Source of the DNA: an archaeon | Lineage (GTDB): Archaea; Micrarchaeota; Micrarchaeia; Anstonellales; Anstonellaceae | Length of the DNA stretch: 64,000 bases | Reading direction: 5' to 3' | NCBI GenBank assembly: GCA_020056635.1 | Contig: JAGVHI010000016.1 | Location: forward strand, 4,702-68,701 | Shown: positions 18,423-39,513 of the stretch, one piece after another | Numbering within the stretch: the stretch's first letter is position 1 | Layout of the letters: each line of letters opens with the position of its first letter | The notes under the pieces: model-generated | Databases searched by the model: none | What the model saw: only the letters and a program-made list of their open reading frames with translations | Told to the model about the DNA's origin: nothing | Translations under genes and position numbers: made by a program

Positions 18423-18442
18423 AAACTAGCGGAGATGATGGC

Positions 18443-19069: not shown

Positions 19070-19228
19070 GGAATATTTTAACGTTCATTCTAATGTTCCT
19101 CAAGCGCCTTTAGGCTTTTCATTCTCGCTTCTCTAAAACCTCTTATGGGAATTCATTTTTAAAGCGCGCAAGTTCAAGTGGTGCAAAGCCCAATAGCGCA
19201 GGCGCGCGAAGGGAAAACTCAATAGCAG

Positions 19229-19756
19229 GTGATTCGATTGGCAAAAGGTTTGGGCATTTACGGGTTTGCTGCAAAAAGCATCGCAATATTCATTTTCGTG
19301 ATGCTGGTTTCAATGCTGCTTTCGGGCTGCGCTTCGCAGGAACAGCAGAACACGGGCGGCGAGTTGATTAAGGAAAACAAGACTGGCACAGTGGTGACCG
19401 AGAACAAGACTGGCTATGAAAAGACAAACGAATCAATAGCGCTTGCGGTAGCTGACGGCACCTATATTGAGAACGTCACTTACCCATATCACGTCGGCCT
19501 GCCAACCGAAGCCAACGAGACAATAGAAGTTAAAGTCACTGTCGAGGGTGATGTGATAACCGACGTATCAATAACAGCGATGGGCACTCCACACCAATAC
19601 TCCGCCAAGCTCATACTGGGTTTGAATGCAGCCCTCCCCGACCTAGTGGTCGGGAAGAAGATAACCGAGCTTAACATACCGAAAAATGTAGCAGGAAGCT
19701 CGCTCACAACTGCGGCATTCAAGGGCTATTTGGAAAACCTGGTGGAAACCTATTAG
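19229..19756 (+). CDS. FMN-binding-domain lipoprotein (candidate ApbE substrate)
   Basis: GTG start. Signal peptide plus lipobox VSMLLSGCAS. The C-terminal VAGSSLTTAAFKGYL resembles the FMN_bind flavinylation motif (S/T-G-A-T/S). It sits immediately upstream of apbE. Confidence 0.6.
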   Translation: MIRLAKGLGIYGFAAKSIAIFIFVMLVSMLLSGCASQEQQNTGGELIKENKTGTVVTENKTGYEKTNESIALAVADGTYIENVTYPYHVGLPTEANETIEVKVTVEGDVITDVSITAMGTPHQYSAKLILGLNAALPDLVVGKKITELNIPKNVAGSSLTTAAFKGYLENLVETY

Positions 19757-19764
19757 GCGCTAAA

Positions 19765-20661
19765 ATGGAGACAGTTGCGAGGACCGAGGAGCTGCTTGGC
19801 TCGGCAATCGAAATCAAGCTTCCCAGGCAGCATTCTTCCTTTTTCCCCATTTGTTTCGAAGAAATGAAGCGGATTGAGGATGCCTACTCCCGTTTCCTTC
19901 CTGATTCCAAACTCTCGAAACTGAATAAGACGCTCGGCACCTGGCAGCATGTTTCCGAAGAATTCATCTTTCTCCTTTCAAAGGCTGAGGAATTCAAGGC
20001 GAAAACAGGCGGTAATTTTGACATAACGCTAAAGTCTGCGCTTGACGCAATGGGCTATGACAAGGATTATTCATTCAAGCAAAAACCCGAGGCAAAGCCC
20101 GGAATTCTTGCAAGCATGAGAGGCGCGCTTTCGGGCGCAATACAAATCAACCGGAACGAGAAAAAAATCCTGCTAAATAGGGAAATCGATTTCGGCGGTT
20201 TCGGAAAGGGTTACGCCTCGGACCGTGTAGCTGAAGTGCTCGAGCGCAAGGGCGTTTCCCACTATTACATTAACGCAGGCGGTGACATGCTTGCAAAAAG
20301 CGCGAAAGGCGAGAAGGATTGGGAAATACTTCTCGAACACCCTGATAACCCTGAAATTGCAATTGGGAAAATCAATCTGAACGGAAAAGCAATCGCAGGC
20401 TCCGCCCCAAACAGGCGGAAATGGGGCGATTCGCACCACCTGATAAACGCGAAAACGGGCAAGCCTGCGCAGGGCACAAAGGCAATATTTGTTATCGCAA
20501 GCACAGGGATTGAAGCGGACGCATGCGCAACCGCGCTTTTCACTGCTGGTTTCGAGCATGGCATTTCTCTTTCGAAAAAAATGCCAGTTGAAATCCTTTC
20601 AATCTCAAGCCAGAACAAAATGTACCAAAGCCCTGGGTTCGGGGCGGAACTGTTCGGATGA
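19765..20661 (+). CDS. apbE: FAD:protein FMN transferase ApbE
   Basis: 298 aa. Motifs are MKRIEDAYSRFLPDSKLSKLN, IDFGGFGKGYASD, YYINAGGDM, GSAPNRRKW, HHLINAKTGKP and ADACATALF. Confidence 0.9.
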   Translation: METVARTEELLGSAIEIKLPRQHSSFFPICFEEMKRIEDAYSRFLPDSKLSKLNKTLGTWQHVSEEFIFLLSKAEEFKAKTGGNFDITLKSALDAMGYDKDYSFKQKPEAKPGILASMRGALSGAIQINRNEKKILLNREIDFGGFGKGYASDRVAEVLERKGVSHYYINAGGDMLAKSAKGEKDWEILLEHPDNPEIAIGKINLNGKAIAGSAPNRRKWGDSHHLINAKTGKPAQGTKAIFVIASTGIEADACATALFTAGFEHGISLSKKMPVEILSISSQNKMYQSPGFGAELFG

Positions 20662-21501
20662 TTAGTCCCCTGCCCCCACGAGCAGCTTAATCAGCAATGG
20701 CACAAGCGCAAGCAGCCCAATGCTTGCAAGGAAATAATGCGAAGGGATTTTCCGAGCAATTTTTGTAAGCACATCCATTGTTACGAACGAAGCAACTGCC
20801 GCAATCACAATTCCCACCGCAATCACTTCAATTGAAAATCCCTCAAACCCTTCCACAAAATAAAATGCAACAAACGCAGCCGCAACCATGGGCGCACTCA
20901 TCATAAAGCTTAGCCTCACCGCTTTTTGCGGCTCAATCCCCTGCAAAAGGAGCGAGCACTGGGTTATCCCGCTCCTGCTTATCCCAGGGATAACTGCCAG
21001 CCCCTGCGCAAACCCGGTTATCAATGCAGTTGAAATTGAAATTTTCGCATTTTGCTCAATCGCCTTCTTGGCTATTACAGTTATTGCGGCCATTACAAAC
21101 AGGAGCACTCCCACTGCAGCAAGCAGCCATTCCCCGGAAAGTTCGGTGAATACTTTGCGAACGATAAAATATGCCGGCAGTGCGACAATTGCGGTTGCAA
21201 CTATCGATATCACAAGAAACAGATGCTCCTTTTTTATTTCATCAGCTTTCTCGAATGAGGCCAATTCAGCGGGCTTAGTGACTGCTGCAACCACTGCCCC
21301 AATATACTCATTCCGGTACTTAAAAATCGCAGCAATGAAATCGCCGCAATGCAAAATAAGTGCGAATGCAAGGCATTCCTTGAAAGGGAGCGAAAAGAAT
21401 GCGCTTCCCGCAAGTATCACCTGTGTTTTCGAGCTCACCGGAATCCATGCGGTAATCCCCTGGATTATTGCAAGCACAATGGCCTGGAATATGTCAATCA
21501 T
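20662..21501 (-). CDS. uppP: Undecaprenyl-diphosphate phosphatase (BacA/UppP family)
   Basis: 279 aa, polytopic. Motifs are AIIQGITAWIPVSSKTQ and PGISRSGITQ. Confidence 0.85.
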   Translation of the reverse strand: MIDIFQAIVLAIIQGITAWIPVSSKTQVILAGSAFFSLPFKECLAFALILHCGDFIAAIFKYRNEYIGAVVAAVTKPAELASFEKADEIKKEHLFLVISIVATAIVALPAYFIVRKVFTELSGEWLLAAVGVLLFVMAAITVIAKKAIEQNAKISISTALITGFAQGLAVIPGISRSGITQCSLLLQGIEPQKAVRLSFMMSAPMVAAAFVAFYFVEGFEGFSIEVIAVGIVIAAVASFVTMDVLTKIARKIPSHYFLASIGLLALVPLLIKLLVGAGD

Positions 21502-21547
21502 GCTAGCGATGGGAAGAAGAAAAAATAAAAAGAGGGGCTAGCAGCAC

Positions 21548-24500
21548 TCACGAGTGCTGCTGCGAATAGGTGCACTCGAGCGGATAATTAGCCCCGGAAT
21601 GGACGCACACCCTTATTGCCCCTGCCCAGGCGTAAGTGCCCTCGCTAGTCCTGCTCCCGACATGCGCGCAGTAGGACCCGTCTGGCAGGTTGCCTTCCAC
21701 ATAGCTTGTCTGGCCAAGCGGAAGGATTGTTACCGGCGCATTCCCGAAGCTGCAGCTGACTGGCCTCTGCCGCGGGTCAACCACGTCCCTGCGAATCGAG
21801 AGTATGCTTCCACCCCCTCCGCCGCCCGGGCTTACCAAATTCTGGATGTTGCTTTTCACCCCAGAGTCGGAAACAGTCTTCGCTATGTCGGTTGTGCCGC
21901 CTGCAATAACCGGGCCTGATTCAATGTTCGCCTGATTGGCGATGCTGCTCTCGATTGCGGAATCGGAAACAAGATCCCCTTGCCCAACAGGCGAGTGCGC
22001 CACCTGCACAACGTAGTTCTCAAGGAACGGCGAGTAATCCGGCTCCACCCAACTCATTGCAACCGAGTGCGAGCCCTGTGCGCTGGTCGCGCCGAATCTG
22101 TACGGCACCACGACCCTAGTGTAATACCTTCCGGTCCTCTCAAAATTCTGCCTTTGGGTGGGCCACAGCCTATTTAGCGGCGAATCGAATGCATTCGTGC
22201 TCCATGCATAGAGCGACTGATATGTCGGGTTTCCTGTTTCATACCTCTGCGAACCGCCCGACCCGCTCACTATGTCCAGCATCCCGTCGCCGTCAATGTC
22301 CGCGACCACCTTTCCCTGTGACCCCAGCGCATCAAGCTCAACGTACTTTGCAGGCATCGCATCTGTCCCGTTCATGCTTTTTGCGCGCAATGCTCCGAAG
22401 TAAGTTCCGGACACGTTCTCCACATCCTCGTACAATATGTCCGGCTCGCCATCCCAGTTCACATCCCCAATCACAGGGCCAAGCCTGTCATCCCAGCCAA
22501 GTGCGCTGTCCCACTGCCCAATAACCGCACCAGTGCTGTTCAGCACCCTAATCCCATGCGCGGTGCCGGTCACGCTCGCAATTATCTCAAGCCCACCTAC
22601 ACTGTCAAGGTTTGCAACTGCCGGAGTTTCCGGCATCTGCCCCAAAAGCGCGGTCCAGAGCAGAGTTCCGTTGCCCCGATACGCAAGCAGCCCGTCCCTC
22701 GTCGGAATCAGCAGCTCATCCCTGTTGTCATAGTTGATATCCGCACTTGTTGCGCTCGCCCTTGCAGGGGATGCGAAAGCCACTGGCCATCCAGGAACTG
22801 CAGTGCCATTCGCATTGAAAGCAAATGCCTTCCCACCTGGCACATTGCAATTCTCCCAGTCCCCAGCATAGAATATCTCAAGGTCCGAGTCCGAATCCAA
22901 ATCTGCGACTATCGGGCTCTGCTGCACCCCTTCGCGCGGGAAGCAGTCGGGCACGCTCTGCGGCCAGCCGGGCCTTATCTGCCCGCTCAAGTTTGTTACA
23001 TAAATCAGTTTCGTATGCGATATCTGTGTCGGCCCTGGCACAATATACACGAGCTCCTTCTGCCCATCGTGCTCAAGGTCAGCTGACATCGCATACGCGC
23101 CAAACTGCCCTGCCCGCCCGGCATTTTGTATCTCATTTTCCCAAACAGCCTGCCCTAAAAGCGATTGCGCCACAGTCCTGTACGCCTCGCTTTCGCTTAC
23201 CCCTCCTTTTGCGTAAATCGCATCCATTATCCCATTGCTCCCGATATCCGAAACAAGCAGCGAGAGCCGATTCAGGTTCGGAAGCGAATCCGGTGCGGAA
23301 ATAACAGTGCTTTCTATTGCGCCGTCCGCCCCAACCACATATACTGCGCTTGCGGAATTGTCCGGGCTCCTGCTTGCAAAAATTATTTCTTTCCCTTCAT
23401 CCGCATCGACATTTTTGATTACCGGAATCGGGTAATCGTGGCTTGTGCTTGGGATTTTCACAGGGAACCCTTCTCGAAGCTCCCTGCCCATGCGCACTGT
23501 TGCGAACTCCTCGCCCAGTTCCTGCTCCCCGCCGCTTCCAAACACCGCAATCCGCATCTTATAGAAGCCGCTCTGCGTATCGGCTGGCAGCGAGAAATTC
23601 GCAAGCCTTCCATTCTGTACAGGCAGGTTGCCATCCCGTTCAAGCGCAATCCCGTCAGCGCTCCAATCCTCTGTCCCAACAGGTGCGTACTCGATTTCAT
23701 AATTTCCGCCCCCGTGCGACCAAATGCACCCGTCAACAGAAAGGCCTTCCCTGTACACATCCCCTCCTTTTGGAGAAGATATTCTTAGCTCTACACTCTC
23801 CTGCGCTCCCATGTAATTCCCGCTTCGCACAGGGTCGTGGTGGTATTCAGGCCATTGCATTGAGGATTCCGGGGTTCCAAGCTCCCAAACGTACACTCCC
23901 CCGTCGCCCTCTTCCCCCGTCCAGCCATAATAAGCGCCATCATCCCCAGTCGTGCCAACCATCTCAAGCATTCCATCATTGTCTATATCGGCTATTACTG
24001 GAGCGGAGCGCATCCCCCTCGGAAGCCGCATCCTCCAGATCGCGTTTTGCGAGTCATTTGCCCTGTATGCGCCCACCCCTGAGAGGTAGCTGAATGATGC
24101 CCCGCATCCGCCTCCTTCGGCAGTTATCAAATCATCCTGCCCATCTCCGCTCACATCCGCCGACACGACAGAGAAGTCCTGCCCGCACCTTGTAGGCACG
24201 CTGCCGATCGTAGTCCCGTTCTCATCTATTATCCTTGCGAAAGATTCGCTGTTCGAATTCGATGCGAGCTCGACGCTTCCGTCATCGTTCAAATCGGAGA
24301 GCATAAGGTACTTCGGAAGTTCGGTCGGCACATTCGTCCAGCCCGGAAGCGGGTTCCCCTGTGCATCGAACCTATAGATGTTATAGAAGCTTGCAATCGC
24401 CAGATCGGGCAGGCAATCCCCGTCAAAGTCATTGATTACCGGAGCCGCCATCCATCCTGCCCTCTCATCGATTGTCCATGCGTTTGAAACGCTTCCATCA

Positions 24501-26899
24501 GCTTCGAGTATTTCCACCCCCGTCTGCAAATTGTTGTCATCCATCACCACATACGCAATCTCCAGCTGCCCGTCGGAATCAAAATCCCCGGCTGCCGCTG
24601 TTGTGAATGCAGCGCCCACTGCGGGCCACTGCCCCATCTGCCTTGGCCAGCCAGACCTCACCTCGCCTGTGTGGTTGAGCACATACAGGTTCTGGCCTCC
24701 GGGAACCATCAGTTCCTTGTACCCATCCCCATCAAGGTCGACCGCTGTCGGGGAGCCAAGCAGGTTCCCATTCGTGCCCCAATGCTCATAATCGCCCGGG
24801 AGCTCGAAAGGCCATCCTTCCTTCTCAGTCCCATCCGGATTGAACACATAGACTTTCATGGTGCCCCTTGCGATAAGCTCTGGGGTGCAGTCCAAATCGA
24901 GGTCCGAAATGAGCAATGGCGAATTGGCTGCCCAATCCCACCCTGGCTCGGGCCAAACTCCCTCATCAAATGAAGCCGGCCAACCCGGCATCAAATTCCC
25001 GTCCGAATCAAGCAAATAGAAATACCCGTTCTTCGCGCTTAAGAATATCTCGCTCATCCCATCATTGTTCACATCCCCGACTGCAGGGGTGGAATATATG
25101 CTCGAGCCTGTGAAGAAAGGCCATCCCTGCTTCTGGTTCATTGTGAAATAGAACGCCTTCTGCTCAAAATTCCCTGCGTCCGACCTCACCACCAGCCTGA
25201 GTGCGTGCCATCCATCGCTCAGCGTTCCAATGCCCCACGTTCCCAGAATTCCGTTCTCCACGCTCGTGCCTTCCGCAATCACGGTCCAACTGCCCGGATA
25301 ATACCCCTCCCCGTAATAGAGAGAGTAATTGGCTCCCCCTATTGCGCTCCCGATTACCTCAACAGTCTGCGTGCCTGAAGAAATCGGCAGTATCACGCCG
25401 GATTCAGGCGAATCAATGCTTGCAACAAGGTTTGGCATCAAGCTCACGCGCACTGCTCCGCTCACATTCACCCGCCCTGCTCCAATATAGCAGTCCGGGA
25501 AATAGCATCCAGCAGGAATTGCGGTTTGCTTGAGTATCTGCTCCACCTGTGCAGGATTGAAGCTCTGGTTATGCGATATTATCAGCCCTGCGGCCCCCGC
25601 GACATACGGGGTTGCCATCGAGGTCCCCCTAAGCTCGCGGTAGCCGGATGGGCTCCCAAGCGGGCCAAAAATCGGCACAGTGCTCAATATTCCAGTTCCC
25701 TCAGGATGGCCTCCTGGCGCAGCCATGTCAGTCCAATACCCGTAAGTGGAATAATACGCCTTCGCATCATTCAAGTCAGTAGCAGTGACTGCAATCACAT
25801 TGTCATATGCCCCAGGATAATTCCTCTCCCTCATTCCAGAGTTTCCTGCAGCCGCAACAAGCACAACCCCCATCCCATGCGCGTACTCGATTGCATCCTG
25901 CTCCATCCCAGAATGCGGGCCTCCAAAGCTCATGCTTATCACGCGCACTCCATTGTCCGCTGCATAGTGTATCGATGCCGAAATATCATCATGCTCAAGT
26001 ATCCCGTACGCATAGCCCCCGTAATAAACCCCAAACCCGTTCCGAACTGGCATTATCCTGCAGTTGTGGCATACGCCGGCTACTCCTATGCTGTTGTTTG
26101 TTGCCGCGCCTGCAATTCCTGCGCAGTGCGTCCCGTGCCCGAAATAATCGCTTGGCATATCATCGGGTTGCGTATAATCCTCCTCGGGCGCAAGCGAGAA
26201 CCCCATTGCCTCGTACGCCGCAGTGTCAATATCCACAAAATCGTATCCTGTCCCATCCGGGCACCCTCCTGTGCAGTCCGCAAGCATGTTTCCCGCCAAA
26301 TCCTCGTGCGAGTAATCCACTCCGGTATCGGCTATTGCTATCACAACCGAGCCATTCCCCAGCTCAACGTCCCACCCTGCCTCCGCGTTCGAGTGCTGGT
26401 GTGACCACTGCTGAGGATAAAGCGGGTCATTTGGGACAAATGAAGTCCTCGCAAGGTAATTGGGCTCTGCATACTCCACATCAGGGAGCTTTGACACTTC
26501 GCGCGCCAACTCTTCCATATCAAGCACATAAGGCAGCCTGTACTCATATATCCTATCAAGCCCGATCTGTTTTGCAAGCTCGTCATCAGGCCTTATATTG
26601 AACACCCTCCTCGGGGCGATGCTTGACCCATCTACCGGTGGCGAATCAAGGCTCTTCTCCGATATCTGGGCGTTCGCAGCATCAGCAACTTGGGGGTCAA
26701 TCGGACTTCCGCTATATGTTTTCACAATCAGCCCGCCTGGCGCATATTCCGGGAACCTTGGCGGGGCTTGAAGAAAATTCGAATAAGTGATATTCGTTTC
26801 ATTGGAAAACCAAACCCCGCTTTCCTGCGCAAGGCAGAATTGCAGCAAAGCCAATATCGTTATCAATGCAACCAATTTCACATTTTTCATTCCAACCAA
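21548..26899 (-). CDS. Giant secreted subtilisin-like (S8) serine protease fused to FG-GAP/VCBS-type beta-propeller repeats
   Basis: 1783 aa. Signal peptide MVGMKNVKLVALITILALLQFCLAQE. Catalytic triad motifs are IADTGVD (D191), HGTHCAG (H255) and GTSMATP (S427). Many DxDxDG-type repeats are present (DVNNDGMSE, DLDGDGYKE, DFDGDC, DIDNDGMLE, DIDGDGMLD). Confidence 0.9.
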   Translation of the reverse strand: MVGMKNVKLVALITILALLQFCLAQESGVWFSNETNITYSNFLQAPPRFPEYAPGGLIVKTYSGSPIDPQVADAANAQISEKSLDSPPVDGSSIAPRRVFNIRPDDELAKQIGLDRIYEYRLPYVLDMEELAREVSKLPDVEYAEPNYLARTSFVPNDPLYPQQWSHQHSNAEAGWDVELGNGSVVIAIADTGVDYSHEDLAGNMLADCTGGCPDGTGYDFVDIDTAAYEAMGFSLAPEEDYTQPDDMPSDYFGHGTHCAGIAGAATNNSIGVAGVCHNCRIMPVRNGFGVYYGGYAYGILEHDDISASIHYAADNGVRVISMSFGGPHSGMEQDAIEYAHGMGVVLVAAAGNSGMRERNYPGAYDNVIAVTATDLNDAKAYYSTYGYWTDMAAPGGHPEGTGILSTVPIFGPLGSPSGYRELRGTSMATPYVAGAAGLIISHNQSFNPAQVEQILKQTAIPAGCYFPDCYIGAGRVNVSGAVRVSLMPNLVASIDSPESGVILPISSGTQTVEVIGSAIGGANYSLYYGEGYYPGSWTVIAEGTSVENGILGTWGIGTLSDGWHALRLVVRSDAGNFEQKAFYFTMNQKQGWPFFTGSSIYSTPAVGDVNNDGMSEIFLSAKNGYFYLLDSDGNLMPGWPASFDEGVWPEPGWDWAANSPLLISDLDLDCTPELIARGTMKVYVFNPDGTEKEGWPFELPGDYEHWGTNGNLLGSPTAVDLDGDGYKELMVPGGQNLYVLNHTGEVRSGWPRQMGQWPAVGAAFTTAAAGDFDSDGQLEIAYVVMDDNNLQTGVEILEADGSVSNAWTIDERAGWMAAPVINDFDGDCLPDLAIASFYNIYRFDAQGNPLPGWTNVPTELPKYLMLSDLNDDGSVELASNSNSESFARIIDENGTTIGSVPTRCGQDFSVVSADVSGDGQDDLITAEGGGCGASFSYLSGVGAYRANDSQNAIWRMRLPRGMRSAPVIADIDNDGMLEMVGTTGDDGAYYGWTGEEGDGGVYVWELGTPESSMQWPEYHHDPVRSGNYMGAQESVELRISSPKGGDVYREGLSVDGCIWSHGGGNYEIEYAPVGTEDWSADGIALERDGNLPVQNGRLANFSLPADTQSGFYKMRIAVFGSGGEQELGEEFATVRMGRELREGFPVKIPSTSHDYPIPVIKNVDADEGKEIIFASRSPDNSASAVYVVGADGAIESTVISAPDSLPNLNRLSLLVSDIGSNGIMDAIYAKGGVSESEAYRTVAQSLLGQAVWENEIQNAGRAGQFGAYAMSADLEHDGQKELVYIVPGPTQISHTKLIYVTNLSGQIRPGWPQSVPDCFPREGVQQSPIVADLDSDSDLEIFYAGDWENCNVPGGKAFAFNANGTAVPGWPVAFASPARASATSADINYDNRDELLIPTRDGLLAYRGNGTLLWTALLGQMPETPAVANLDSVGGLEIIASVTGTAHGIRVLNSTGAVIGQWDSALGWDDRLGPVIGDVNWDGEPDILYEDVENVSGTYFGALRAKSMNGTDAMPAKYVELDALGSQGKVVADIDGDGMLDIVSGSGGSQRYETGNPTYQSLYAWSTNAFDSPLNRLWPTQRQNFERTGRYYTRVVVPYRFGATSAQGSHSVAMSWVEPDYSPFLENYVVQVAHSPVGQGDLVSDSAIESSIANQANIESGPVIAGGTTDIAKTVSDSGVKSNIQNLVSPGGGGGGSILSIRRDVVDPRQRPVSCSFGNAPVTILPLGQTSYVEGNLPDGSYCAHVGSRTSEGTYAWAGAIRVCVHSGANYPLECTYSQQHS

Positions 26900-26909
26900 C
26901 CTCCGATTA

Positions 26910-28004
26910 TTATTTTACAAGTGTCATCTTTTTTGTTCGTGATATTCCATCAGCTTCGAATCTGTACAAATAAGTCCCGCTCGGAAGCCCGTCTGTTTTG
27001 AAAACTGTGCTATATCTCCCGGCAGTCTTCGTCCCATCCACGAGCGTTGCAACCCGCCTTCCAGTCACATCATAAACGCGAATCTTGACAAAGGCGCGCT
27101 TTGGAATCTCGTATTCAATAGTGGTCGTAGAATTGAACGGGTTCGGGTAATTCTGCTTAAGCTCTATTCCCGAAGGCAGCGCAAATGGGATCCTCCCAAC
27201 CGGCAGCCTTGCGGTCAATTCATTTGCCTGCAGCGTATCATGCACAAGAGTGCTCCAAGAGTATCTCCAAGGCTGCACACCCACTGCTTCCAATGCCGCC
27301 GAATCAATCAGGGAAAACGCCCAAGTGTTCCTGACTGCAACCAGCTCGCTCCCATTTGTGAATACTGCGTTCACTGGCATTCCCGCAATTGTCGTATCGA
27401 GGTTCACTGGCGGAAACCCGCTGGATGCCATGATTGAAATGAAATTCTCAAAGTTCCCGCACGGCGAAGGCATTGCCCAGCGCTGGCACGTGCTGTCCGC
27501 AATCCTCGCAGCCTCTGCCGAATCGCCAAGCGCTTCATCGAAAACTATGAATACGCCATAGCCCCTTGCAAGACCCACCCTTCTCTCCGCATCAGTGAAC
27601 GGTCCATCTTTCATTATCGCTTTGAGCGTGTCCCCGCACGTAGGATTATCTGGGTTATTGCCAGGCCATATCACCGCGCGCGCCATGAACGAAGGGTCAG
27701 GCCACACCCCATCAATCTCAACATGCTGGTAAACCCATATTGTGTCCTGGCCGTGCTCAAGGGCATAAATGGTCTGCTGCACATGCTGCTCCGAAGCAAA
27801 TGCAGAATGCAACTTGTCCACGAGCGGAACCAGCAGCATAAATGCCCCACCCGCAGCAAGCTTTCCAATGCCGCGCAATCCAGGCCCGTTCCTGAAGAAT
27901 TCGGAAATCCTACCTGGCATTTTCCTTTCAAATGCCCTTGCTTGCGCTGGCGCATTCGGGTTCTGGAAACTGTACGTTATCCTTTCCGAACTCATGTCCC
28001 TCAT
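26910..28004 (-). CDS. Membrane-anchored/secreted protein ending in a T9SS type-A (Por) C-terminal sorting-domain-like / FlgD-Ig-like module
   Basis: 364 aa with an N-terminal hydrophobic anchor, KLAAGGAFMLLVPLV. The last 84 aa are ELKQNYPNPFNSTTTIEYEIPKRAFVKIRVYDVTGRRVATLV...GTYLYRFEADGISRTKKMTLVK, ending exactly at the stop codon. The start overlaps the upstream stop by 4 nt. Confidence 0.8.
   Translation of the reverse strand: MRDMSSERITYSFQNPNAPAQARAFERKMPGRISEFFRNGPGLRGIGKLAAGGAFMLLVPLVDKLHSAFASEQHVQQTIYALEHGQDTIWVYQHVEIDGVWPDPSFMARAVIWPGNNPDNPTCGDTLKAIMKDGPFTDAERRVGLARGYGVFIVFDEALGDSAEAARIADSTCQRWAMPSPCGNFENFISIMASSGFPPVNLDTTIAGMPVNAVFTNGSELVAVRNTWAFSLIDSAALEAVGVQPWRYSWSTLVHDTLQANELTARLPVGRIPFALPSGIELKQNYPNPFNSTTTIEYEIPKRAFVKIRVYDVTGRRVATLVDGTKTAGRYSTVFKTDGLPSGTYLYRFEADGISRTKKMTLVK
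26913..27164 (-). other. T9SS-CTD-like terminal domain
   Basis: QNYPNPFN...VYD..GR.V..L.......G.Y...F......SG.Y.YR.......KKM.L.K pattern at the extreme C-terminus. Confidence 0.7.
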
Positions 28005-31000
28005 CCTTCTTCAGTAATTATGTTTCCAGCATCTGCAACAATTCCCTCTATCGCGTTGATTCCAACTTCAGTGCTGTTGTTGATGCTCACGCCAGGCCCA
28101 ATGGCCCCGATGGAATTCACTATTTGCGAGTTCCAGTCAATCCTTCTCCTATTCCCAATCCCCACTACATCTATTGGTGTAGCCGGGCAGTTTGCAATCC
28201 CGCCTATGCACACTCTCTTGGCAGCAGTCCAAGCATACCTTTGGTCCGGAGGCATTGCGAATGAATTCACGCTTGCCGCCCTCACATAGTGCCACCCGTT
28301 TGCAAGCCCGCCAATCACATAATTGCCAGGTGCAGGGACTTCCTGTATCGGGCTGTTTGCAAAATCCTGGCTCATGGATTCCTGCAATGCATATCCTGAA
28401 AGGAACATGTAATCGTCAGCCTCAACAAAGCTCACAGTAATCGAGTTCCCGGAAACAACGGCATTAAACCCATAAGGCGCGCTCATTCTTGTTATCTGCC
28501 TTCCAGTCCTCTCAAAATTCCTCCCTAACGTCGGCCAAACCCTGCTTCTCGGGCCTGCGTTTCCCCCAAGGCTCCATGCATAAACTGACTGGCGCGTTGC
28601 AACATCCTCGCCTGTTCCGTACCTGTTCGCCCCTTCACTTCCGCTCACAAGCTCCAGCATTCCATCCCCGTCAATATCTGCGATTGCTTTCCCATGCGAG
28701 CCAAGCACCGTCAATTCAACGTATTTTGGCGCAACAGCATCGTTGCCTTCAATGTCCCTTGCGCGCAGCATCCCGAACACTGTGCCCGAGACATTCTCAA
28801 CATCCTCGTGGATTATATCGAGCGACCCATCGCCATCCGCATCAGCAAGCACGGGCCCCATCCTGTCGTCCCATGCCAGGTTGGTGTCCCAGCTTCCGAC
28901 AAGCTGCCCCTGCTCATTTAACACTCTGATTCCGTGTTGTGTTCCAGTCACGCTCACCACTATTTCAAGCCCCCCATCAAAGTCCAAATCTGCAAGCGCG
29001 GGCGCCTCTGCCCACTGCCCTTCTAGTGCATGCCATATGAGTTCGCCGTTTGGGCGGTATGCATAAAGCCCGTTCCTAGTTGGAATTATGACTTCATCCT
29101 TCCCATCATCATCCAAATCAGCGCTTGCGGAACTTGCCCTTGCAGGCGAATCAAAGAGCACTGGCCACCCCGGAACCGGGCTTCCGTTTGGGTTGAATGC
29201 AACTGCTTTTCCTGAGGGCACATCACAATTGTCCCCTTCAGCCGCGTAAACCACCTCAAGGTCGGAATCCGCATCAAGGTTTGCGACTATCGGGCTTGGC
29301 TGCACCCCGTCGCGGGGCCCGCAATCAGCCGTTTCAGTTGGCCACCCGTTCCTGGTAACCCCTGCAAGGCTTTTCACATAAATGCTCCTCATGTGCTCTC
29401 CTGACGGGGCAACGAACACCAGCTCCTTCTGCCCGTTCCTGTCTATGTCTGAGAGCACCGTGAAAGTGCCGTATTGCTCAGCCCTGCCGCCATCAGGCAG
29501 GCTCTCCTGCCATCCCTGCTGCCCGGAGAGCGAATATGCTGATGTATAGTACGGAGTGCCTTCTGCATTCCCGCCTGATGAATAGACCGCATCCTGCACA
29601 CCGTCATTCCCGATGTCCGCGACCTGCAGAGAAAGCCGGTTTAAGTTCTGGTTCGTGTCAGGCTCGGATTCCACGATTGCTTCCAACTCCCCGTCTGCGC
29701 CTACAACATACACCACGCTTGCGGTATCAAGCTCATTTCTGCTTGCAAAAATAATCTCCTTTTCCGCATCTGCATCCACGTTCCTTATCATCGGAATCGG
29801 ATAATCCCTTGCAACGCTCGGAACCCTTGCAGGGAACCCCTGCGCAAGCCCGGTGTCAATCCGGACGGTTGCAATTTCCTGTGACAAAAGTTCGCGCCCA
29901 TCGTTAGCCACGACCCTTATCCTGAATTTGTAGAACTCGGGGGCAAATCCTGCCGGGGCATTGAAATCTGCAATATGCGTCCTGTTCGGGCCTGCGCTTG
30001 GCGCAATCTCCACCCCTTCAATGCTCCATTCTTCAGTGCCCACAGGAGCGTATTCCACAAACAATCCAAATCCTTGCGGAATATATGCGCTTCCATCAAC
30101 GCTCATCAAATCCCCATACACATCCCCTCCATAGGGGTCTCCGACAGAGAGCGCACCGCTTCCAACCATTGCAGGCGCGGCCCACGCATAGCTTCCATTC
30201 ATGCTCCTGCTCCCTGCCCGCGCATAATACGCTCCCTCGCCAACATTGGTGAACGTGTAGTCCCTTGTAGAAAGGGAAACATTCACATCTGCAACCATCT
30301 GCCCAAATCCCGAATCGTTCGCAAGCTGCACCGCATACCCTGCAAGAAGCGGGTAATTGTCTGCCTCAGCCCAGGAAACTGAAATATTCCCCTCCATAGT
30401 GCCCAGTGCATCAAATGAATATGGCGCCCCAAGCCTGCCAACATACCTGTTTGTCCTCCCCTCATCCCTATGCTGCGTAGGCCACGCATTATTTATTTGC
30501 GATGCTTGCGCCCCAAGATGCCAAACGTAAGCAGTCTGCCTCGGGACAGTGCTATCCGAGTGGTTTGTGCCTATGCGTATATTGTCAAACCATGACAACC
30601 TCTGCCTGCCCTCGCCAGTGCCCACAAGCTCAAGCGTGCCGTCATTATTCATATCCGCAAGGTTCAGCCCTTCCAATATGCTTGACTCCACGTATTTCGG
30701 GAACCCTGCAAGCTCCTGCCCTGCGAGATTCCTTGCGTGTATGGTGTTGAACGGAACTCCGCTCACAATTTCCCGTCCCTCATAAACCAAATCAAGCTGC
30801 CCGTTCCCGTCAATGTCCCCAAAAAGCGGCTCATATACCGAGAGGCCGCTTCTCCAGCTCGAGCCTGCGGCATAAGCATGCTGGTTTTGCACTGGCCAGC
30901 CCGGATGCTCAGTGCCGTCCGCATAAAGAAGGTGCACAAGCCCCGAATTATCCTCAACTGCGATATCCGGCGCCCCATCCCAATCAACATCCGCAACTGC

Positions 31001-34000
31001 TGGGCTGGAAACAAATGTTGAGCCATTCAGCACTGACATGGCAACTGTGCCCGAAGAGCCAAATGCCCTAAGCGCATTGCCCCCTGCAACCAATAGCTCG
31101 TCAATCCCGTCCCCGCCCAAATCTACCGCAACAGGGGTTGAAATAAGCGGATAGCCGCTTGTGTTGTAATATACTGGCCAGCCCGGCATCACGCTCCCAT
31201 CTAGCTCGAACATGTATGCCTTCCCAAGCGGCATGCTGCAGTTTTCAGCATAGAAGCATTCTGACATGCCAGTATAAGCAATCTCAAGCTGCGGGTCAGA
31301 ATCGAAATTCCCCACCATCGGGCTTGGCTGGCTTGGCTGCCCGCTTACCATATGTGTCACATTCTGCGGCCAGCCAGACATCACGCTTCCGTTTGCCCAA
31401 ACAACATAAATCGCGGCATTCAAATTCCCGGGCAGCACGAACACGAGCTCCTTTTCCCCATCGTGGTCCAGGTCTGCAAGAACCTGGTAATTGTTGAGCT
31501 GGTATTCCATCCTGTAATAATGGTACCACGCAGGCGGCTGCGTCTCATTCGAATATAAAGACCAAAACTCGCTTTCATCCTGCTGCTGCGCAAACACGCT
31601 GTGGTAATGCGCAGCCTTGTATTTTGCATAAGAATATTCGTTCTCCCCATCCAAGTCAAAATCATTCAAGTGCAGCGAGAGCCTGTTCACCTCCCCTTCT
31701 GCTTCCGGAGGGGAAATCACCAGACTTTCCGATACTCCGTCGCTGCCTATTGCATAAACCGCGCTCGTGCTCCTGTCAGGCAAATTTTCTACATATGCTA
31801 TTTCCTTCTGCCCATCCCCATCCACGTCCTTTAGCGTTGGCATTATGTAATACGAATCCAGCTCGTACTCATACGCTTCGCTCCGGTAGCTCCACCTATG
31901 GTCATAGCGCGGAACCGGAATTTCAATATACGCCGGATAATTCTGCGCAATCCCCCTGTCAATCCTCAATATTGCGAAAACCTGTTCAACCGAAGGCCCA
32001 CCCCCGTTCTGGTCGTACATCCCGAGCCTGAACTGGTAAAACCCGCTTTGCAATCCAGCCGGCGCATCAAACCTTGCAATCCTCCCATCCGCGCTCTGCA
32101 GCCCGCCATTCTCGAGCGTTATCCCTTCAGCGCTCCATCCACCTGTTCCGTTTGGCGCATACCACACTGTATATGTATAGTTCTCCGGAAGCAGCACAGT
32201 CCCGTTTATTTCAAGCGAATCGCGGTAAACATCCCCATTGAAAGGAGTGAGAACTGCCGGGTTATCCACTACGAACGTGAAATAATCAATCGTCTCCCGC
32301 CCGTTCCCGCTCACATTCAGCTTCACAAGATACAGCCCATTTTGCGGGAACAATGCGACCTTCTCAATCTGCGCAAATTGGAGCTGCGCAGGCATCCCTG
32401 CAGCCAGTTGCACGCTTCCCTGCTCATGGTATGCCCCCAGCCACGATTCCGGGTCTTCAAGAATCGGGCCGTCTTCCCTTGGATTCTGCCCCATGAACCC
32501 AACATCATAAGTGTAATTGTATTCGCCTGCAGCTTCATTCGCATACGCATTGAGATTCGCCTCAAACCGCACCGCCTGGCGGCTCTCGCTTTCTTTTCTC
32601 AGCTCAACAATGGCCGGCCTTGGCGAGCCTCCGGCCGCGAACGCATTTATCCTCCCATGCCCCTTGTCAAGCACGTTTGCTTGGAACCGAACCCCATCTA
32701 TGGATTTCGTGACATTCGCGTTTGCAGTGTTCCTTAGCGCATACTTGATTTCATCCGGGTTCCACTCAGGGTGCTGCTGCACAAGCAGCGCCGCCGCCCC
32801 TGCAGCCGCGGGCGTTGCCATCGAGGTTCCGCTGTAGCTTATGTGCCCCGGGAACCCATAGCAGCTCCTGTTCTCATGCCCTGTCCAGAAAGTCGAGCAT
32901 ACCATTGCGCCTATTGCAAGCACATCCGGCTTTACTGCTCCCCCTAGCACCGGGCCTCGGGAGCTGAATCCAGCAAGGGTTCCAAACTTGAACGAAGCCC
33001 CGACACCTATCGTTTTCCGCGATGCGGCCGGTGACGCGACATACCCGTACTGTGCATACGCGCCACCGCCACCATATCCGTAGTTATGGACAGCCGCAAC
33101 CGCGACCACCCCCACATTCACCATATTGTCCGATGAAAGCGACACTATGCTGTCCGGGTCATTGTCAAGCGCGCCTATGCTCATGGTTGCAATATCCACA
33201 TGGTCCTCCATATTAGAATCATTGTTCGGGTCAAGTATCCGCTCAAACGCATTCAGGATTGATATTTCAGGGCAGCTGTTTGCAGGCGCAGGCTCTATAT
33301 GGAAGTGGTCTAAATCGCACACTTTGTAATCATAAATAGTTGCGTCAGGCGCCATTCCCCTAAAAAGCGCCCCGCTTTCATTTGTGAAATTGGCGGCAAC
33401 AATTCCTGCCACATGTGTTCCATGCCCCCAATAGCTCGGCTGCGGAAGGTCATGGTCATAAACAAAATCATATGCCCACTCCACCCTGCATCCCGGCCCG
33501 ACACTCCCGTTTGCGGTGCACCCGGGGACCGCAAAGTCAGGGTGCGTCGCATCCACTCCAGTATCCACAACCCCGACCCGCACGCCAGCGCCAGTGTAGC
33601 CTCCTGCCCACATATCGACTGCCCCAAGCGTAACCGTGACGTTTGGCATCGCAGGCCAAGCATGCCCGAGCTCGTATATTTTTTTCACAAACGAAAGCTT
33701 CTCGATTTTTGCTTTCTCCGCAGGAGAAATCTCTTTCACCATTATCCCATTCTGCACAAGCACCAAATCGTATCTTTGCCTGCCCGAGAACCCTGGAACC
33801 GCATTTTCAATCTGGCTCAGGTAGCCGCTATGCGCAGCTTTTAGCCAGTTCGCATAGTTTTTAGCCTCGTCAAACTGCGAAGGCTGCGTAGGGAACGTGC
33901 CTATATGGACAGATGCAGGCGCTTCCATGAACTGGATCAGATACCCGCTTGGGCCGGCATAGACCGGAGTTGCATTCCAATAGGGCTGCCCTTCCTCCAA

Positions 34001-34084
34001 AAGCGGTGATTCCTGCGCAATGCAAACCGACGCTAAAAGCAGAAGCGCGAATGCGACAGTTTCAATATTTTTCATAAGAATCAA
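28001..34084 (-). CDS. Giant secreted subtilisin-like (S8) serine protease with two FG-GAP/VCBS propeller units (paralog of 21548..26899)
   Basis: 2027 aa. Signal peptide MILMKNIETVAFALLLLASVCIAQE. Catalytic motifs are VVDTGVD (D174), HGTHVAG (H221) and GTSMATP (S421). The C-terminal ~700 aa look more than half identical by eye to the 1783-aa protein. Confidence 0.9.
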   Translation of the reverse strand: MILMKNIETVAFALLLLASVCIAQESPLLEEGQPYWNATPVYAGPSGYLIQFMEAPASVHIGTFPTQPSQFDEAKNYANWLKAAHSGYLSQIENAVPGFSGRQRYDLVLVQNGIMVKEISPAEKAKIEKLSFVKKIYELGHAWPAMPNVTVTLGAVDMWAGGYTGAGVRVGVVDTGVDATHPDFAVPGCTANGSVGPGCRVEWAYDFVYDHDLPQPSYWGHGTHVAGIVAANFTNESGALFRGMAPDATIYDYKVCDLDHFHIEPAPANSCPEISILNAFERILDPNNDSNMEDHVDIATMSIGALDNDPDSIVSLSSDNMVNVGVVAVAAVHNYGYGGGGAYAQYGYVASPAASRKTIGVGASFKFGTLAGFSSRGPVLGGAVKPDVLAIGAMVCSTFWTGHENRSCYGFPGHISYSGTSMATPAAAGAAALLVQQHPEWNPDEIKYALRNTANANVTKSIDGVRFQANVLDKGHGRINAFAAGGSPRPAIVELRKESESRQAVRFEANLNAYANEAAGEYNYTYDVGFMGQNPREDGPILEDPESWLGAYHEQGSVQLAAGMPAQLQFAQIEKVALFPQNGLYLVKLNVSGNGRETIDYFTFVVDNPAVLTPFNGDVYRDSLEINGTVLLPENYTYTVWYAPNGTGGWSAEGITLENGGLQSADGRIARFDAPAGLQSGFYQFRLGMYDQNGGGPSVEQVFAILRIDRGIAQNYPAYIEIPVPRYDHRWSYRSEAYEYELDSYYIMPTLKDVDGDGQKEIAYVENLPDRSTSAVYAIGSDGVSESLVISPPEAEGEVNRLSLHLNDFDLDGENEYSYAKYKAAHYHSVFAQQQDESEFWSLYSNETQPPAWYHYYRMEYQLNNYQVLADLDHDGEKELVFVLPGNLNAAIYVVWANGSVMSGWPQNVTHMVSGQPSQPSPMVGNFDSDPQLEIAYTGMSECFYAENCSMPLGKAYMFELDGSVMPGWPVYYNTSGYPLISTPVAVDLGGDGIDELLVAGGNALRAFGSSGTVAMSVLNGSTFVSSPAVADVDWDGAPDIAVEDNSGLVHLLYADGTEHPGWPVQNQHAYAAGSSWRSGLSVYEPLFGDIDGNGQLDLVYEGREIVSGVPFNTIHARNLAGQELAGFPKYVESSILEGLNLADMNNDGTLELVGTGEGRQRLSWFDNIRIGTNHSDSTVPRQTAYVWHLGAQASQINNAWPTQHRDEGRTNRYVGRLGAPYSFDALGTMEGNISVSWAEADNYPLLAGYAVQLANDSGFGQMVADVNVSLSTRDYTFTNVGEGAYYARAGSRSMNGSYAWAAPAMVGSGALSVGDPYGGDVYGDLMSVDGSAYIPQGFGLFVEYAPVGTEEWSIEGVEIAPSAGPNRTHIADFNAPAGFAPEFYKFRIRVVANDGRELLSQEIATVRIDTGLAQGFPARVPSVARDYPIPMIRNVDADAEKEIIFASRNELDTASVVYVVGADGELEAIVESEPDTNQNLNRLSLQVADIGNDGVQDAVYSSGGNAEGTPYYTSAYSLSGQQGWQESLPDGGRAEQYGTFTVLSDIDRNGQKELVFVAPSGEHMRSIYVKSLAGVTRNGWPTETADCGPRDGVQPSPIVANLDADSDLEVVYAAEGDNCDVPSGKAVAFNPNGSPVPGWPVLFDSPARASSASADLDDDGKDEVIIPTRNGLYAYRPNGELIWHALEGQWAEAPALADLDFDGGLEIVVSVTGTQHGIRVLNEQGQLVGSWDTNLAWDDRMGPVLADADGDGSLDIIHEDVENVSGTVFGMLRARDIEGNDAVAPKYVELTVLGSHGKAIADIDGDGMLELVSGSEGANRYGTGEDVATRQSVYAWSLGGNAGPRSRVWPTLGRNFERTGRQITRMSAPYGFNAVVSGNSITVSFVEADDYMFLSGYALQESMSQDFANSPIQEVPAPGNYVIGGLANGWHYVRAASVNSFAMPPDQRYAWTAAKRVCIGGIANCPATPIDVVGIGNRRRIDWNSQIVNSIGAIGPGVSINNSTEVGINAIEGIVADAGNIITEEG

Positions 34085-34374
34085 TCTCCCCTAGCGCGCT
34101 CTAGGCATGCGCATATAATCCGGAAAACAGGATGCAGAAAAAGCACGGGAAAAGTTTCTCTTGGCTAACCAATCGGGACACGCACATTGCATTCGGAACA
34201 AATGCATTAGGCAACCACTCTAACTTCCTTTCTCTCCCGACGAATATTTGTTGTAGCTAGTATATAAACGTTTTGTTGCTTGAAAATGCAGAAAATCGGC
34301 TCCACTATGCCCATTGCTGAAAAAAGAAAAATGGAAAAAGCGAAAATAAGCAAAACGGGAAAAAATCAGCCCAT

Positions 34375-35118
34375 TTACCCGTACATGGGGCCCAGCGACT
34401 GCGCAGATTCCGTCTTCTTGTAATGCTGCTGCGCCATTTTCGCCTTTCCCATCATGTCTCGCATTTTGTTCTCAATAAGCTTGGACTCGCGCTCAAGCTC
34501 GCTGGTGTCAATCTCAATCCCAAGCATCCCGTGCACGATTTCAAGCACCATGCTCGCAGCTTTCGGGTCTATGTACTCCTCGTGCGATTCCGCAAGCAAG
34601 GATGCGACCGGGAATTCCAGTATTGCGCCGCGCGCAAGCAGCACCCCTGTGACTCCAGTGGTCGCGCCCTCGTCAATGAGCTTTATCGCCTTGTACTTGG
34701 AGAGCGTGTCCCTCATCTTCTGCGTGCTTGCAATCGCGTACACAGTGTCCTGCTCCCCCTTTATCGTGATTCCCCCAAGCGAGATGATTTGCGATACCTT
34801 GTTCTTTTCCGCGAATTGGAAAAGTTCATCCGCAAGCTCGTGCACAGCGTCCATCGGTATTACAAACTCGGATATGAACACAATGAGATTGTGCTTCTCT
34901 GAGCAATAGATTCTTGCAGGGTGGAGCGGGATTTTCCCGTGCACTGCCGCAAGCGGTGGGAATTTCTCTGAGGTGATATACCCCATGGGCTTCATTTTCA
35001 GCTTCTCCACTATGTAGCTTGCGGAAATCGTGCCAACAAGCCCGAGCCCTGGGAACCCCTCAATCAAAGTCGGGTTCTTTAGCTTAAACTTTCCAAGCTG
35101 GTGCAGTTCTAGTGCCAT
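34375..35118 (-). CDS. PAC2-family proteasome assembly chaperone
   Basis: LIEGFPGLGLVGTISASYIVEKL...PPLAAVHGKIPLHPARIY. The likely start is MALELHQ at 35118 (the ORF track extends to 35208). Confidence 0.75.
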   Translation of the reverse strand: MALELHQLGKFKLKNPTLIEGFPGLGLVGTISASYIVEKLKMKPMGYITSEKFPPLAAVHGKIPLHPARIYCSEKHNLIVFISEFVIPMDAVHELADELFQFAEKNKVSQIISLGGITIKGEQDTVYAIASTQKMRDTLSKYKAIKLIDEGATTGVTGVLLARGAILEFPVASLLAESHEEYIDPKAASMVLEIVHGMLGIEIDTSELERESKLIENKMRDMMGKAKMAQQHYKKTESAQSLGPMYG

Positions 35119-35173
35119 ATTCCCGGTTATTCCTTCCCAATCTTTTAAAATACTCCCCTGCGCTTCTTCACGC

Positions 35174-36439
35174 ATGGAAAAACTGCTAGCGCTCGCCCGC
35201 AGGCACAACCTCGAGGCCGAATTCTACCACGAGCGCTCGCACGGGATAACGCTTGGCACAGCAGGCAGCGCTGTGAAATTCAAGTCAAGCGAATTTTGCG
35301 AGGGCTATTCTGTGCGCGTGCTCCACCAAGGGCGCATTGGCTTTGCGTATTTTGAGCGCTTGGCCGATGCGGAAAAAACAACCTTGCTTGCAAAAAAGCT
35401 CTCCTCATTTTCCCCCAAATCCGGCTTCTCATTTGCCCAAAAGCAAAAATATGCAAAAATCATACCGTATGACAAAAGGGTGGCGGCAATCACCCCAGAG
35501 GATGCGGTATCGCACGCAAAGGAAATGCTCAAATCCGCCTCTTCAATAAAAGGCGCAATCCCAACTGAAGGCAGCATCTCATTCTCAACTGGCGGGTTCG
35601 AGCTTGCAAGCTCAAGCGGCCTTTTTTCCAGCTCCCGCTCCACCGGGCTCTCAATCTGGTGCGGCGCCAATTTCAAAGGGAGCACCGGGGGCGCAAGCTT
35701 CTCGCACTATAAATTCGAGGACAAATTCGCTGCGGTCGGAAAGGAAGCGGCTCAGGTTGCAAAGCGCATGCACACTGCGAAAAAAATCCCCCAGAAAAAG
35801 ATGACTGTGATTTTCGGGCGCGAGGCGCTTCACTCGCTTTTGCACGGGATACTGCTCCCCTCGCTGAATGGAGACTGGGCTAGGCGGAAAATTTCAAAGT
35901 TCACCGGGTTAGAGGGCAAGCAGGTTGCAAGCGAATGCTTTACGCTATCTGATGACCCGTTTGCGGACGCGGCAGGGCTCTCCCCATTCGACGGGGAAGG
36001 GGTTGCGGCAAAGCGCATCCCACTGATTGAAAAGGGAATTTTCCGCTCTTTCCTATTCGACAGGCTCACTGCCTCGCTTGCGCAGGTTGATGCGCAGGGC
36101 TCATGCGCAAGGGGAAGCTACCTTGGAAGCCCCTCAATCTCCCCAAGCAACCTCTCAATCGCACCAGGCACTATCCGCAACCTGGAATCCGAATTCCCAA
36201 ATTCCCTAATTGTTCGCGATTTCCACGGCGAGCACACCGCAAACAAGGTGACTGGGGACTTTTCAGTTTCGCTTGATGCGGCCTTCCTTGCGGACGGCAA
36301 ATCGGTGCGCGGCAACCTCCTTTCCTCCAACATATTCGAAATGCTAAAAAACATAGCAGGGGCAGAAAAGGGTGCTTGCGCCTATGCCGATATGGTTGCT
36401 CCCAGGGTTGCATTCGGGGATATCCTTATAGTCGGATAG
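35174..36439 (+). CDS. TldD/PmbA-family metalloprotease
   Basis: Starts [19 protein letters not shown]-terminal motifs are [26 protein letters not shown] and [13 protein letters not shown]. Confidence 0.8.
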
Positions 36440-36465
36440 GCTGCAAGCAAGACAGGGAGGATAAA

Positions 36466-38475: not shown

Positions 38476-38479
38476 CGCT

Positions 38480-39388: not shown

Positions 39389-39513
39389 ATGTGGTAACTT
39401 GTAGATTTCCTACCTTTTAACCCTATTTCCAATGCATTTCGCCTGAGTGCTGCCTTTAAAAGAATATTCGATATAATCAAATCACTAATCTATTACTACA
39501 GGAAGGTGTCTGT

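Follow-up and report, generated by a model that had tools for sequence, protein, structure and literature searches.

The DNA analysed here, hereafter called the window, comprises 64,000 nucleotides of the archaeal contig JAGVHI010000016.1 (assembly GCA_020056635.1, positions 4,702 to 68,701), and on its minus strand three co-directional genes follow each other, of which the first and the last encode giant subtilases and the middle one encodes a protein of 364 residues. An earlier note on this locus had quoted the last 84 residues of the 364-residue protein, with a terminal KKMxLxK and a stop codon directly behind, as a sorting domain of the bacterial type IX secretion system (T9SS), and the sequence was read correctly: the quoted stretch is residues 281–364, and K364 is followed directly by TAA TAA. 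We found that this tail is a type-A T9SS C-terminal domain (CTD) by curated criteria, that it is linked to archaeal genes, and that a diverged orthologue carries it as well.

The C-terminal domain and the operon that encodes it

The tail is assigned to the type-A T9SS CTDs because its scores with two family models exceed the curated cutoffs. The hidden Markov model (HMM) TIGR04183 (Por_Secre_tail, NCBIfam) matches residues 286–360 of the protein with 42.8 bits (E 3.8e-11, profile positions 2–69 of 72) at a curated cutoff of 23 bits, and Pfam PF18962 matches with 39.6 bits at a gathering score of 27 bits. This gathering score also applies to PF13860 (FlgD_ig) and to PF13585 (CHU_C, type-B CTD), which gave 16.6 and 14.6 bits, respectively, and membership in the FlgD-Ig family is ruled out. 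Of the two designations that had been proposed, T9SS type-A CTD and FlgD-Ig-like domain, the first is thus retained and the second is dropped. When compared with the consensus of 138 CTDs from bacteria of the Fibrobacteres–Chlorobi–Bacteroidetes (FCB) superphylum, the tail aligns through its motifs NYPNPF, SGTYLYRF and KKMTLVK, in line with the motifs A–E that have been defined for type-A CTDs and that include a PNP strand, a GxY strand and a terminal K..K strand (PMC10202324). The tail shares 60% identity with this consensus, and its median identity to the 138 individual domains is 48%, compared with a median of 49% among the bacterial domains themselves. Judged by its sequence, the tail is an ordinary member of the bacterial 'LKQNYPNPFNxxTTI...' subtype and indistinguishable from it. 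The match ends at residue 360 of 364 and hence at the extreme C-terminus, and an HMM built from the 138 FCB domains detected no second CTD in any six-frame open reading frame (ORF) of the window.

The predicted structure agrees with this assignment. When residues 276–364 were modeled alone by AlphaFold2 in single-sequence mode, a seven-strand β-sandwich was obtained with a mean predicted local distance difference test (pLDDT) score of 78, and the Foldseek neighbours of the modeled tail include the T9SS CTDs of mirolase (8qb1, E 3e-3) and of RemZ in the SprA complex (8gl8_D). Foldseek also returned DUF3244 and generic Ig-like β-sandwiches, all with modest E-values, and a search of the PDB by sequence gave a single match, the Por CTD 8glj_D (E 0.095).

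Upstream of the tail, the picture is less familiar. If M29 is taken as the start codon, the protein begins with a basic n-region, a 14-residue h-region LAAGGAFMLLVPLV and an AFA|S site according to the hydropathy scan and our reading, and this leader resembles a textbook Sec signal peptide. With M1 as start, the gene overlaps the upstream protease gene in a 4-nt ATGA, in which the protease stop and the M1 ATG share bases, and the leader would then have 70 residues; with M29, a gap of 84 nt separates the two genes. Either methionine could be the start, and the translational coupling that the earlier note had seen therefore stands as far as the ATGA overlap is concerned and would apply only if translation starts at M1. 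The hydrophobic stretch near residues 29–70 (KD19 hydropathy about 1.27) has neither the length nor the hydrophobicity that a membrane anchor would require. Between the putative signal peptide and the tail lies a predicted extracellular domain that matched neither of the flanking proteases nor any other ORF of the window in BLAST searches. We also considered that the ORF might be the frameshifted C-terminus of the upstream protease and rejected this, as the frames differ, stop codons are present directly upstream in frame, and the protein has a putative export signal of its own.

The two giant subtilases are paralogues that share 40% identity across about 1090 residues. Both begin with MKN..., followed by a hydrophobic stretch and AQES, which reads like a signal peptide, and both combine a thermitase-like S8A catalytic domain, with its D, H and S motifs, with many FG-GAP/VCBS repeats. 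In the upstream protease, the putative signal peptide is MKNIETVAFALLLLASVCIAQES, and the D-H-S triad is accompanied by FG-GAP/VCBS propeller repeats and fn3-like parts. Neither HMM scans nor hydropathy analysis revealed a CTD or a C-terminal anchor on either protease. Both are strongly acidic, with an isoelectric point (pI) of 4.3–4.45, in a window whose predicted proteome is basic (median pI 8.35). A halophile or nanohaloarchaeal 'SPEARE-like' interpretation was dropped because of this basic proteome.

In the leader of the operon, ATTATATG occurs about 40 nt before the ATG of the first gene, TTTATATAC lies farther out at about 180 nt, and GGGGAG precedes the start. Shine-Dalgarno sequences of the GGAGG type precede several genes of the window, including those of LonB and of the downstream protease. 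At the other end, a hairpin lies over the stop codon of the 1780-residue protease (21540–21561) and is followed on the coding strand by TTTTTATTTTTTCTTCTT (21516–21537); together they look like the probable end of the operon. All features are compiled in Table 1.

Table 1. Features of the three-gene operon, in window coordinates
Feature	Coordinates	Strand	Basis or remarks
Leader/promoter region between PAC2 and the operon	34076..34374	-	299 nt, A/T-rich; promoter from reading only
Upstream protease gene	28001..34075	-	2024 aa from ATG (ORF 2027 aa); S8A subtilase
Gene of the 364-aa protein	26910..28004	-	TAA at 26910-26912, second TAA after; orphan N-terminal part and type-A T9SS-like CTD
Putative Sec signal peptide, residues 29-70 (if M29 is the start)	27795..27920	-	Sequence reading and hydropathy scan
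Orphan extracellular domain (predicted), residues 71-280	27165..27794	-	No Pfam match; AlphaFold2 pLDDT <50
Type-A CTD, residues 281-364, ELKQNYPNPFNSTTTIEYEIPKRAFVKIRVYDVTGRRVATLVDGTKTAGRYSTVFKTDGLPSGTYLYRFEADGISRTKKMTLVK	26913..27164	-	HMM matches, predicted fold
HMM-matched CTD core, residues 286-360	26925-27149	-	
Spacer TAATCGGAGGTTGGTTGGA, 19 nt	26891..26909	-	Shine-Dalgarno-like GGAGG at 26900-26904, before the downstream protease
Downstream protease gene	21548..26890	-	1780 aa from ATG (ORF 1783 aa); paralogue, same architecture
10-bp perfect hairpin (AGCAGCACTC..GAGTGCTGCT), then TTTTTATTTTTTCTTCTT T-tract	21516..21561	-	Reading only

Assembly, archaeal context and composition of the locus

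A bacterial domain on an archaeal contig calls for a consideration of the assembly, and the explanation to be weighed is that a three-gene block from an FCB bacterium was joined to archaeal DNA by the assembly or by multiple displacement amplification (MDA). The single public run that contains the sequence (X1, an aquatic metagenome from 2018 with about 0.94 Mb of contigs) does look MDA-amplified: its depth across the window ranges from 0 to 112, and it contains opposite-strand joints at 22225/30395, 34129/37044, 45110/46227 and 48270/52580, a pattern that is typical of MDA as used for single-cell or mini-metagenome libraries. One of the joints, at 34129, lies in the operon leader, where two of the Logan contigs of the run (contigs 5 and 6) overlap by k-1 (34129–34158). 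The Logan contigs, which come from a separate assembly, nevertheless tile 22225–40492 and are 100% identical to the window over 22225–34158, 34129–37055 and 37040–40492, with k-1 overlaps between them, and the two competing branches of the graph lead to 30395 and 37044, inverted, and hence back into the same archaeal locus, so that they represent fold-backs in which no second genome is involved. One locus that our searches returned for the 364-residue protein (L081) is such a fold-back chimera itself.

At the left border of the operon, X1 provides two short pieces (21379–21529 and 21560–21817, depth about 6.7 each), and the 30 nt between them (21530–21559), which lie over the hairpin, are the sole stretch that the run leaves uncovered, a point in favour of a chimera. 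The change from low-depth pieces, the last of which ends at 22202, to the high-depth contig, which starts at 22225, falls within the downstream protease gene. The depth step (112 versus 31 and 3–7) was considered as a sign of a mis-join and rejected, as the depth is uneven throughout and the joints are fold-backs. A chimera would furthermore need two clean intergenic joins, and it would have to explain why the proteases are without the CTD that FCB cargo would have, and why the N-terminal domain of the 364-residue protein is without a bacterial relative among 1.84e9 proteins.

Composition points in the same direction. For relative synonymous codon usage (RSCU), the correlation of the three operon genes with the remaining window is r 0.83–0.92, and that of the other genes 0.53–0.94, so the comparison with the flanks that the earlier note had called for gives a native-like result. 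For tetranucleotide frequency (TNF), the operon and the remaining window give r 0.80–0.82, below the 0.93–0.97 of native 12.5-kb segments, and this difference could be read in favour of a chimera. Relative to 62 FCB loci, however, the operon reaches a maximum TNF r of 0.57 and a median of 0.06. Moreover, when the amino acids were kept fixed and native codon usage was simulated, r was 0.48 for the operon, compared with 0.82 observed, and in native control sets r fell from about 0.90 to about 0.77 in the same simulation. The deviation of the operon is therefore due to the acidic, repeat-rich composition of its proteins, which more than covers the TNF drop, and a foreign origin as its cause was rejected on this basis. 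The host signature in the operon DNA is stronger than codon usage by itself would produce. We thus agree with the earlier note that a simple chimeric assembly of the operon is unlikely, as the Logan contigs, codon usage and TNF all indicate, and we regard the specific scenario of an FCB-derived block joined to archaeal DNA as very improbable.

The contig is archaeal on both sides of the operon. To its right follow PAC2, TldD/PmbA, LonB with an archaeal LID domain (LonB_AAA-LID), replication factor A (RPA), RqcH_arch, the CTP-dependent riboflavin kinase RibK, FEN-1, and the A-type ATPase subunits I, C and A, and the AtpA among them scores 946 bits with TIGR01043 and has the A-type ATPase subunit A 1vdz as its best PDB relative. 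On the left side, UppP and ApbE are encoded together with a Trm61-like methyltransferase, RtcB and a HerA-like ATPase. The earlier note had taken PAC2/LonB on one side and uppP/apbE on the other as genuinely archaeal; the former holds, and the latter genes are by themselves no archaeal markers. The archaeal status of the left flank is established via the contig of a relative (L083, GCA_053535515.1), on which UppP, with 73.6% nucleotide identity, is encoded together with ribosomal protein L15e and RNase P Rpp14. Among the roughly 45 ORFs of the 64-kb window that were scanned, no T9SS or outer-membrane protein families were detected.

Further observations concern other parts of the window. In the block 16815–20661, a PvcA/Dit1-like protein, a member of the isonitrile/dityrosine synthase family (PF05141, 95 bits), is encoded together with a cytochrome b5-like protein, a membrane protein that resembles ferric reductases, an unassigned 175-residue ORF and ApbE; the block is missing from L083, in which UppP adjoins SelR and a cold-shock protein. 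On either side of RtcB are ORFs of 940 residues (6911–9733) and 1073 residues (11291–14512) that have no Pfam or NCBIfam match and are replaced in L083 by ORFs of 235 and 75 residues, and the two long ORFs look like variable surface-protein islands. RtcB itself has 475 residues and no intein in the window (9777–11204), and 947 residues with an intein (PF14890) in the relative (JAIYJB010000012.1, 4761–7604); both share one cluster at 90% identity. A HerA/FtsK-like ATPase of 683 residues, followed by ORFs of 526 and 516 residues without a family match, occupies 96–5274, and the ATPase and the 526-residue ORF are adjacent also in the relative (L083, 8842–12469). The minus-strand ORF at 48953–49483 (176 residues) matches PF20603 'Bacterial hydrolase' with 217 bits and is a further case of a bacterial-named family on this archaeal contig.

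Origin of the tail and a diverged orthologue

The closest taxa of the 364-residue protein, which the earlier note had proposed to identify, differ between its two parts. A genome scan with one genome per species gave 589 relatives, and the best 80 of them, which we examined, come exclusively from bacteria and almost entirely from the FCB superphylum (Ignavibacteria, Balneolales, Calditrichia, Marinimicrobia, Bacteroidota). These 80 match residues ~270–364 only, with 45–54% identity; tblastn extensions into residues 119–270 (L031, L035, L071) were dismissed as gappy noise that does not represent homology. The N-terminal 283 residues have no bacterial homologue among 1.84 billion representative proteins, in which phmmer found one relative (P0005) besides the protein itself, and two metagenome scans with patterns of the N-terminal domain found nothing.

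P0005 is encoded on a 641-nt ENA contig (L082), on which the homology starts at STCQQWSMPQPHGSFENF, in frame from the contig edge. It shares 49% identity with the 364-residue protein before the CTD, about 32% within the CTD and 37% overall, and its own tail, again at the extreme C-terminus, scores 38.1 bits with TIGR04183, above the cutoff. Its gene ends in a triple stop, after which GGAGG, GGTTGGAATG and a signal-peptide-like start follow. This junction of stop, Shine-Dalgarno sequence and start has the same layout as in the window, with 88% nucleotide identity, and is the sole stretch that can be aligned at the DNA level. The contig has a GC content of 0.53 and a GC content at third codon positions (GC3) of 0.60, the same as the window. 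Because P0005 shares the tail, the junction and the GC content, the architecture is conserved and does not represent a fresh import: the orphan domain with its CTD, followed by a predicted secreted protein, is maintained in another, diverged organism whose DNA has the same type of composition.

These results do not support the recent bacterial acquisition, possibly together with the protease genes, that had been suggested, as codon usage is native and the N-terminal domain lacks a bacterial homologue. A co-transfer of the proteases in particular is without support because the 80 FCB loci contain just one weak S8 match; in addition, the proteases carry no CTD, and the diverged orthologue has the same architecture. 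The tail was probably gained from FCB bacteria as a domain, not together with the whole operon, and has probably been retained through at least one speciation.

The tail could also be a neutral relic, that is, the leftover of a transferred bacterial fragment that has no role and is decaying. That no T9SS is expected in an archaeon would fit this explanation, as would the marginally low GC3 of the CTD segment and the extreme rarity of the family, which has two known members. A decaying relic is, however, difficult to reconcile with an ORF that is intact to the final residue, with the preservation of motifs B, D and E and an HMM score well over the cutoff, with the well-formed domain that AlphaFold2 predicts, and with the fact that the orthologue, at 37% overall identity, still has a C-terminal CTD above the cutoff. 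We consider a relic unlikely.

A proposed role apart from secretion, and comparison with known systems

To our knowledge, the T9SS is restricted to FCB bacteria, and archaea are not known to have one, nor an outer membrane translocon (SprA/Sov, PorV) or a PorU sortase. The view of the earlier note that the tail cannot act as a Por signal follows from this general background. With neither a translocon nor a sortase expected, the tail would not direct secretion here. Our best explanation, to which we give somewhat better than even confidence, is that the 364-residue protein serves the giant-subtilase operon as a Sec-exported accessory protein and that its tail, derived from FCB bacteria, was retained for its Ig-like β-sandwich rather than for signalling to a T9SS. 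Its gene would be the middle member of a three-gene operon that is native to the archaeal genome, and the protein would be exported via Sec, as its leader suggests. Outside the cell, it would consist of a lineage-specific domain of about 210 residues, followed by the type-A CTD. As a single membrane would be crossed and no second translocation step would be needed, the tail could have been kept as a compact Ig-like fold; the model predicts a stable seven-strand sandwich that may serve as a spacer or binding module. The protein would then act together with the two co-expressed anchorless subtilases, for example by tethering the proteases or by presenting substrate.

Several points weigh against this explanation. 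The N-terminal domain gave nothing in a Pfam scan even at E<=10, and the AlphaFold2 single-sequence model of the whole protein remained below a pLDDT of 50 across it. No RNA runs carrying the gene were found, and the putative role as accessory to the proteases is proposed from operon position. The 30-nt coverage gap at the left border belongs here as well. The CTD segment has a GC3 of 0.483 compared with an expected 0.578 (P about 0.04), which hints weakly at a tail that is younger than the remainder of the gene or was swapped later. Finally, synteny breaks at the operon, which appears to occupy a region where genes of secreted proteins vary, because a different secreted gene follows PAC2 in a relative (L084; JGI 3300009538, Ga0129287_10017815): LonB-TldD-PAC2 is conserved there with 77–81% nucleotide identity, and a different signal-peptide gene (…AALLFFLLLSSFSAFAHA|DTT…, 2968–3183) takes the place of the giant subtilase. 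In L083, the neighbours of UppP also differ from those in the window, and the contig stops directly upstream of UppP. A TTTATATA box is present between PAC2 and the signal-peptide gene of L084.

It could be argued that the tail has retained a function as a signal for sorting or processing, either because it is recognized by an archaeal machinery of unknown nature, in which perhaps the co-encoded subtilases are PorU-like and catalyze clipping and envelope attachment, or because the organism has an outer membrane. The strictly C-terminal position and the intact KKMxLxK end, both of which occur in true cargo, the location of the gene between two proteases in one operon, and the retention of the tail in both known family members would all agree with such a function. 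PorU, however, is a C25-type cysteine peptidase and not an S8 subtilase, and neither of the two proteases has a CTD. The scanned 64 kb contain no detectable T9SS or outer-membrane family, and the window has one CTD, whereas genomes with a T9SS have tens (PMC10202324). We consider a sorting function in this archaeon rather improbable.

A further possibility is cross-domain mimicry, in which the tail would bind to PorV or the T9SS of FCB bacteria nearby, so that the protein could attach to these cells, interfere with them or deliver its N-terminal domain. The tail matches the FCB consensus as closely as true bacterial CTDs do, secretion of the protein is predicted, and X1 is an aquatic metagenome, with the 80 related loci coming from bacterial metagenome-assembled genomes (MAGs) that are nearly all FCB. 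T9SS cargo meets its translocon from the periplasmic side, however, which is out of reach for an external protein, and we regard this scenario, which is pure inference, as extremely improbable. More generally, the idea that an archaeal lineage has adopted the FCB-type tail as a working tag, either processed by the co-encoded subtilases or engaging the T9SS/PorV of FCB neighbours, is one in which we place little confidence. If it were true, it would represent the first function for a CTD outside T9SS-bearing bacteria and, in the subtilase version, an archaeal counterpart of CTD/sortase attachment.

With the tail kept as an Ig-like module, the preferred explanation reveals no new system, and its significance lies elsewhere. 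In review literature, the type-A CTD is treated purely as a T9SS signal (PMC10202324), and TIGR04183 is described as exclusive to the FCB superphylum in the passage of PMC5317091 that cites Rinke 2013. The identity of the domain, its archaeal linkage, its native composition and the orthologue are direct observations, and they contradict this published generalisation: a CTD that shares a contig with archaeal genes, has a native composition and recurs in an orthologue shows that the domain can be transferred and can be maintained without the secretion machine. No description of an archaeal T9SS CTD was found in the literature searched. Domain databases list scattered archaeal matches to this CTD family, and automatic annotation would presumably attach the name 'T9SS type A sorting domain-containing protein' to the 364-residue protein. 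We would like to emphasize that this annotation should be taken neither as evidence for a T9SS nor as a sign that an archaeal bin is contaminated with bacteria. The locus offers a natural test case for the role of the CTD fold apart from secretion.

Compared with known systems, the 364-residue protein is most similar to the type-A cargo of FCB bacteria, with which it shares the HMM score above the cutoff, the position at the extreme C-terminus, the (Y)PNP and GxY strands, the K-x-x-L-x-K end, an identity of 45–56% to bacterial CTDs and, as far as predicted, the seven-strand Ig-like sandwich; a putative N-terminal export signal may be a further common feature. It differs from such cargo in being encoded on an archaeal contig, with an orphan passenger that has no bacterial relatives, as the one CTD in 64 kb in which no T9SS genes are seen. 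The general seven-strand fold is shared with the FlgD Ig-like domain (PF13860) and DUF3244 (Foldseek 4g5a, 3d33 and 3osv, TM 0.4–0.65), whereas the PF13860 score stays below its cutoff and the identity to these structures is 11–26%. The native solution to be expected for anchoring in archaea is the PGF-CTERM/archaeosortase A system, in which secreted surface proteins carry a C-terminal element; unlike these proteins, the 364-residue protein lacks a PGF motif as well as a C-terminal transmembrane helix and a basic tail, and ends in the β-strand KKMTLVK. The closest precedent comes from archaeal MAGs of the Thermoprofundales (MBG-D), whose expressed secreted peptidases have T9SS cargo of Bacteroidota as best matches (PMC6461988); the 'Por secretion' label in the supplement of that study is the name of a BLAST hit and not a domain call on an archaeal protein. 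Both cases represent secreted archaeal proteins with similarity to FCB T9SS cargo, and the peptidases thus provide a precedent for transfer from FCB bacteria to archaea. There, the homology lies in the C25 catalytic part, whereas here it is confined to the tail and was tested directly against the HMM. The tail of the 364-residue protein is a further indication that archaea make use of the bacterial repertoire of secreted proteins.

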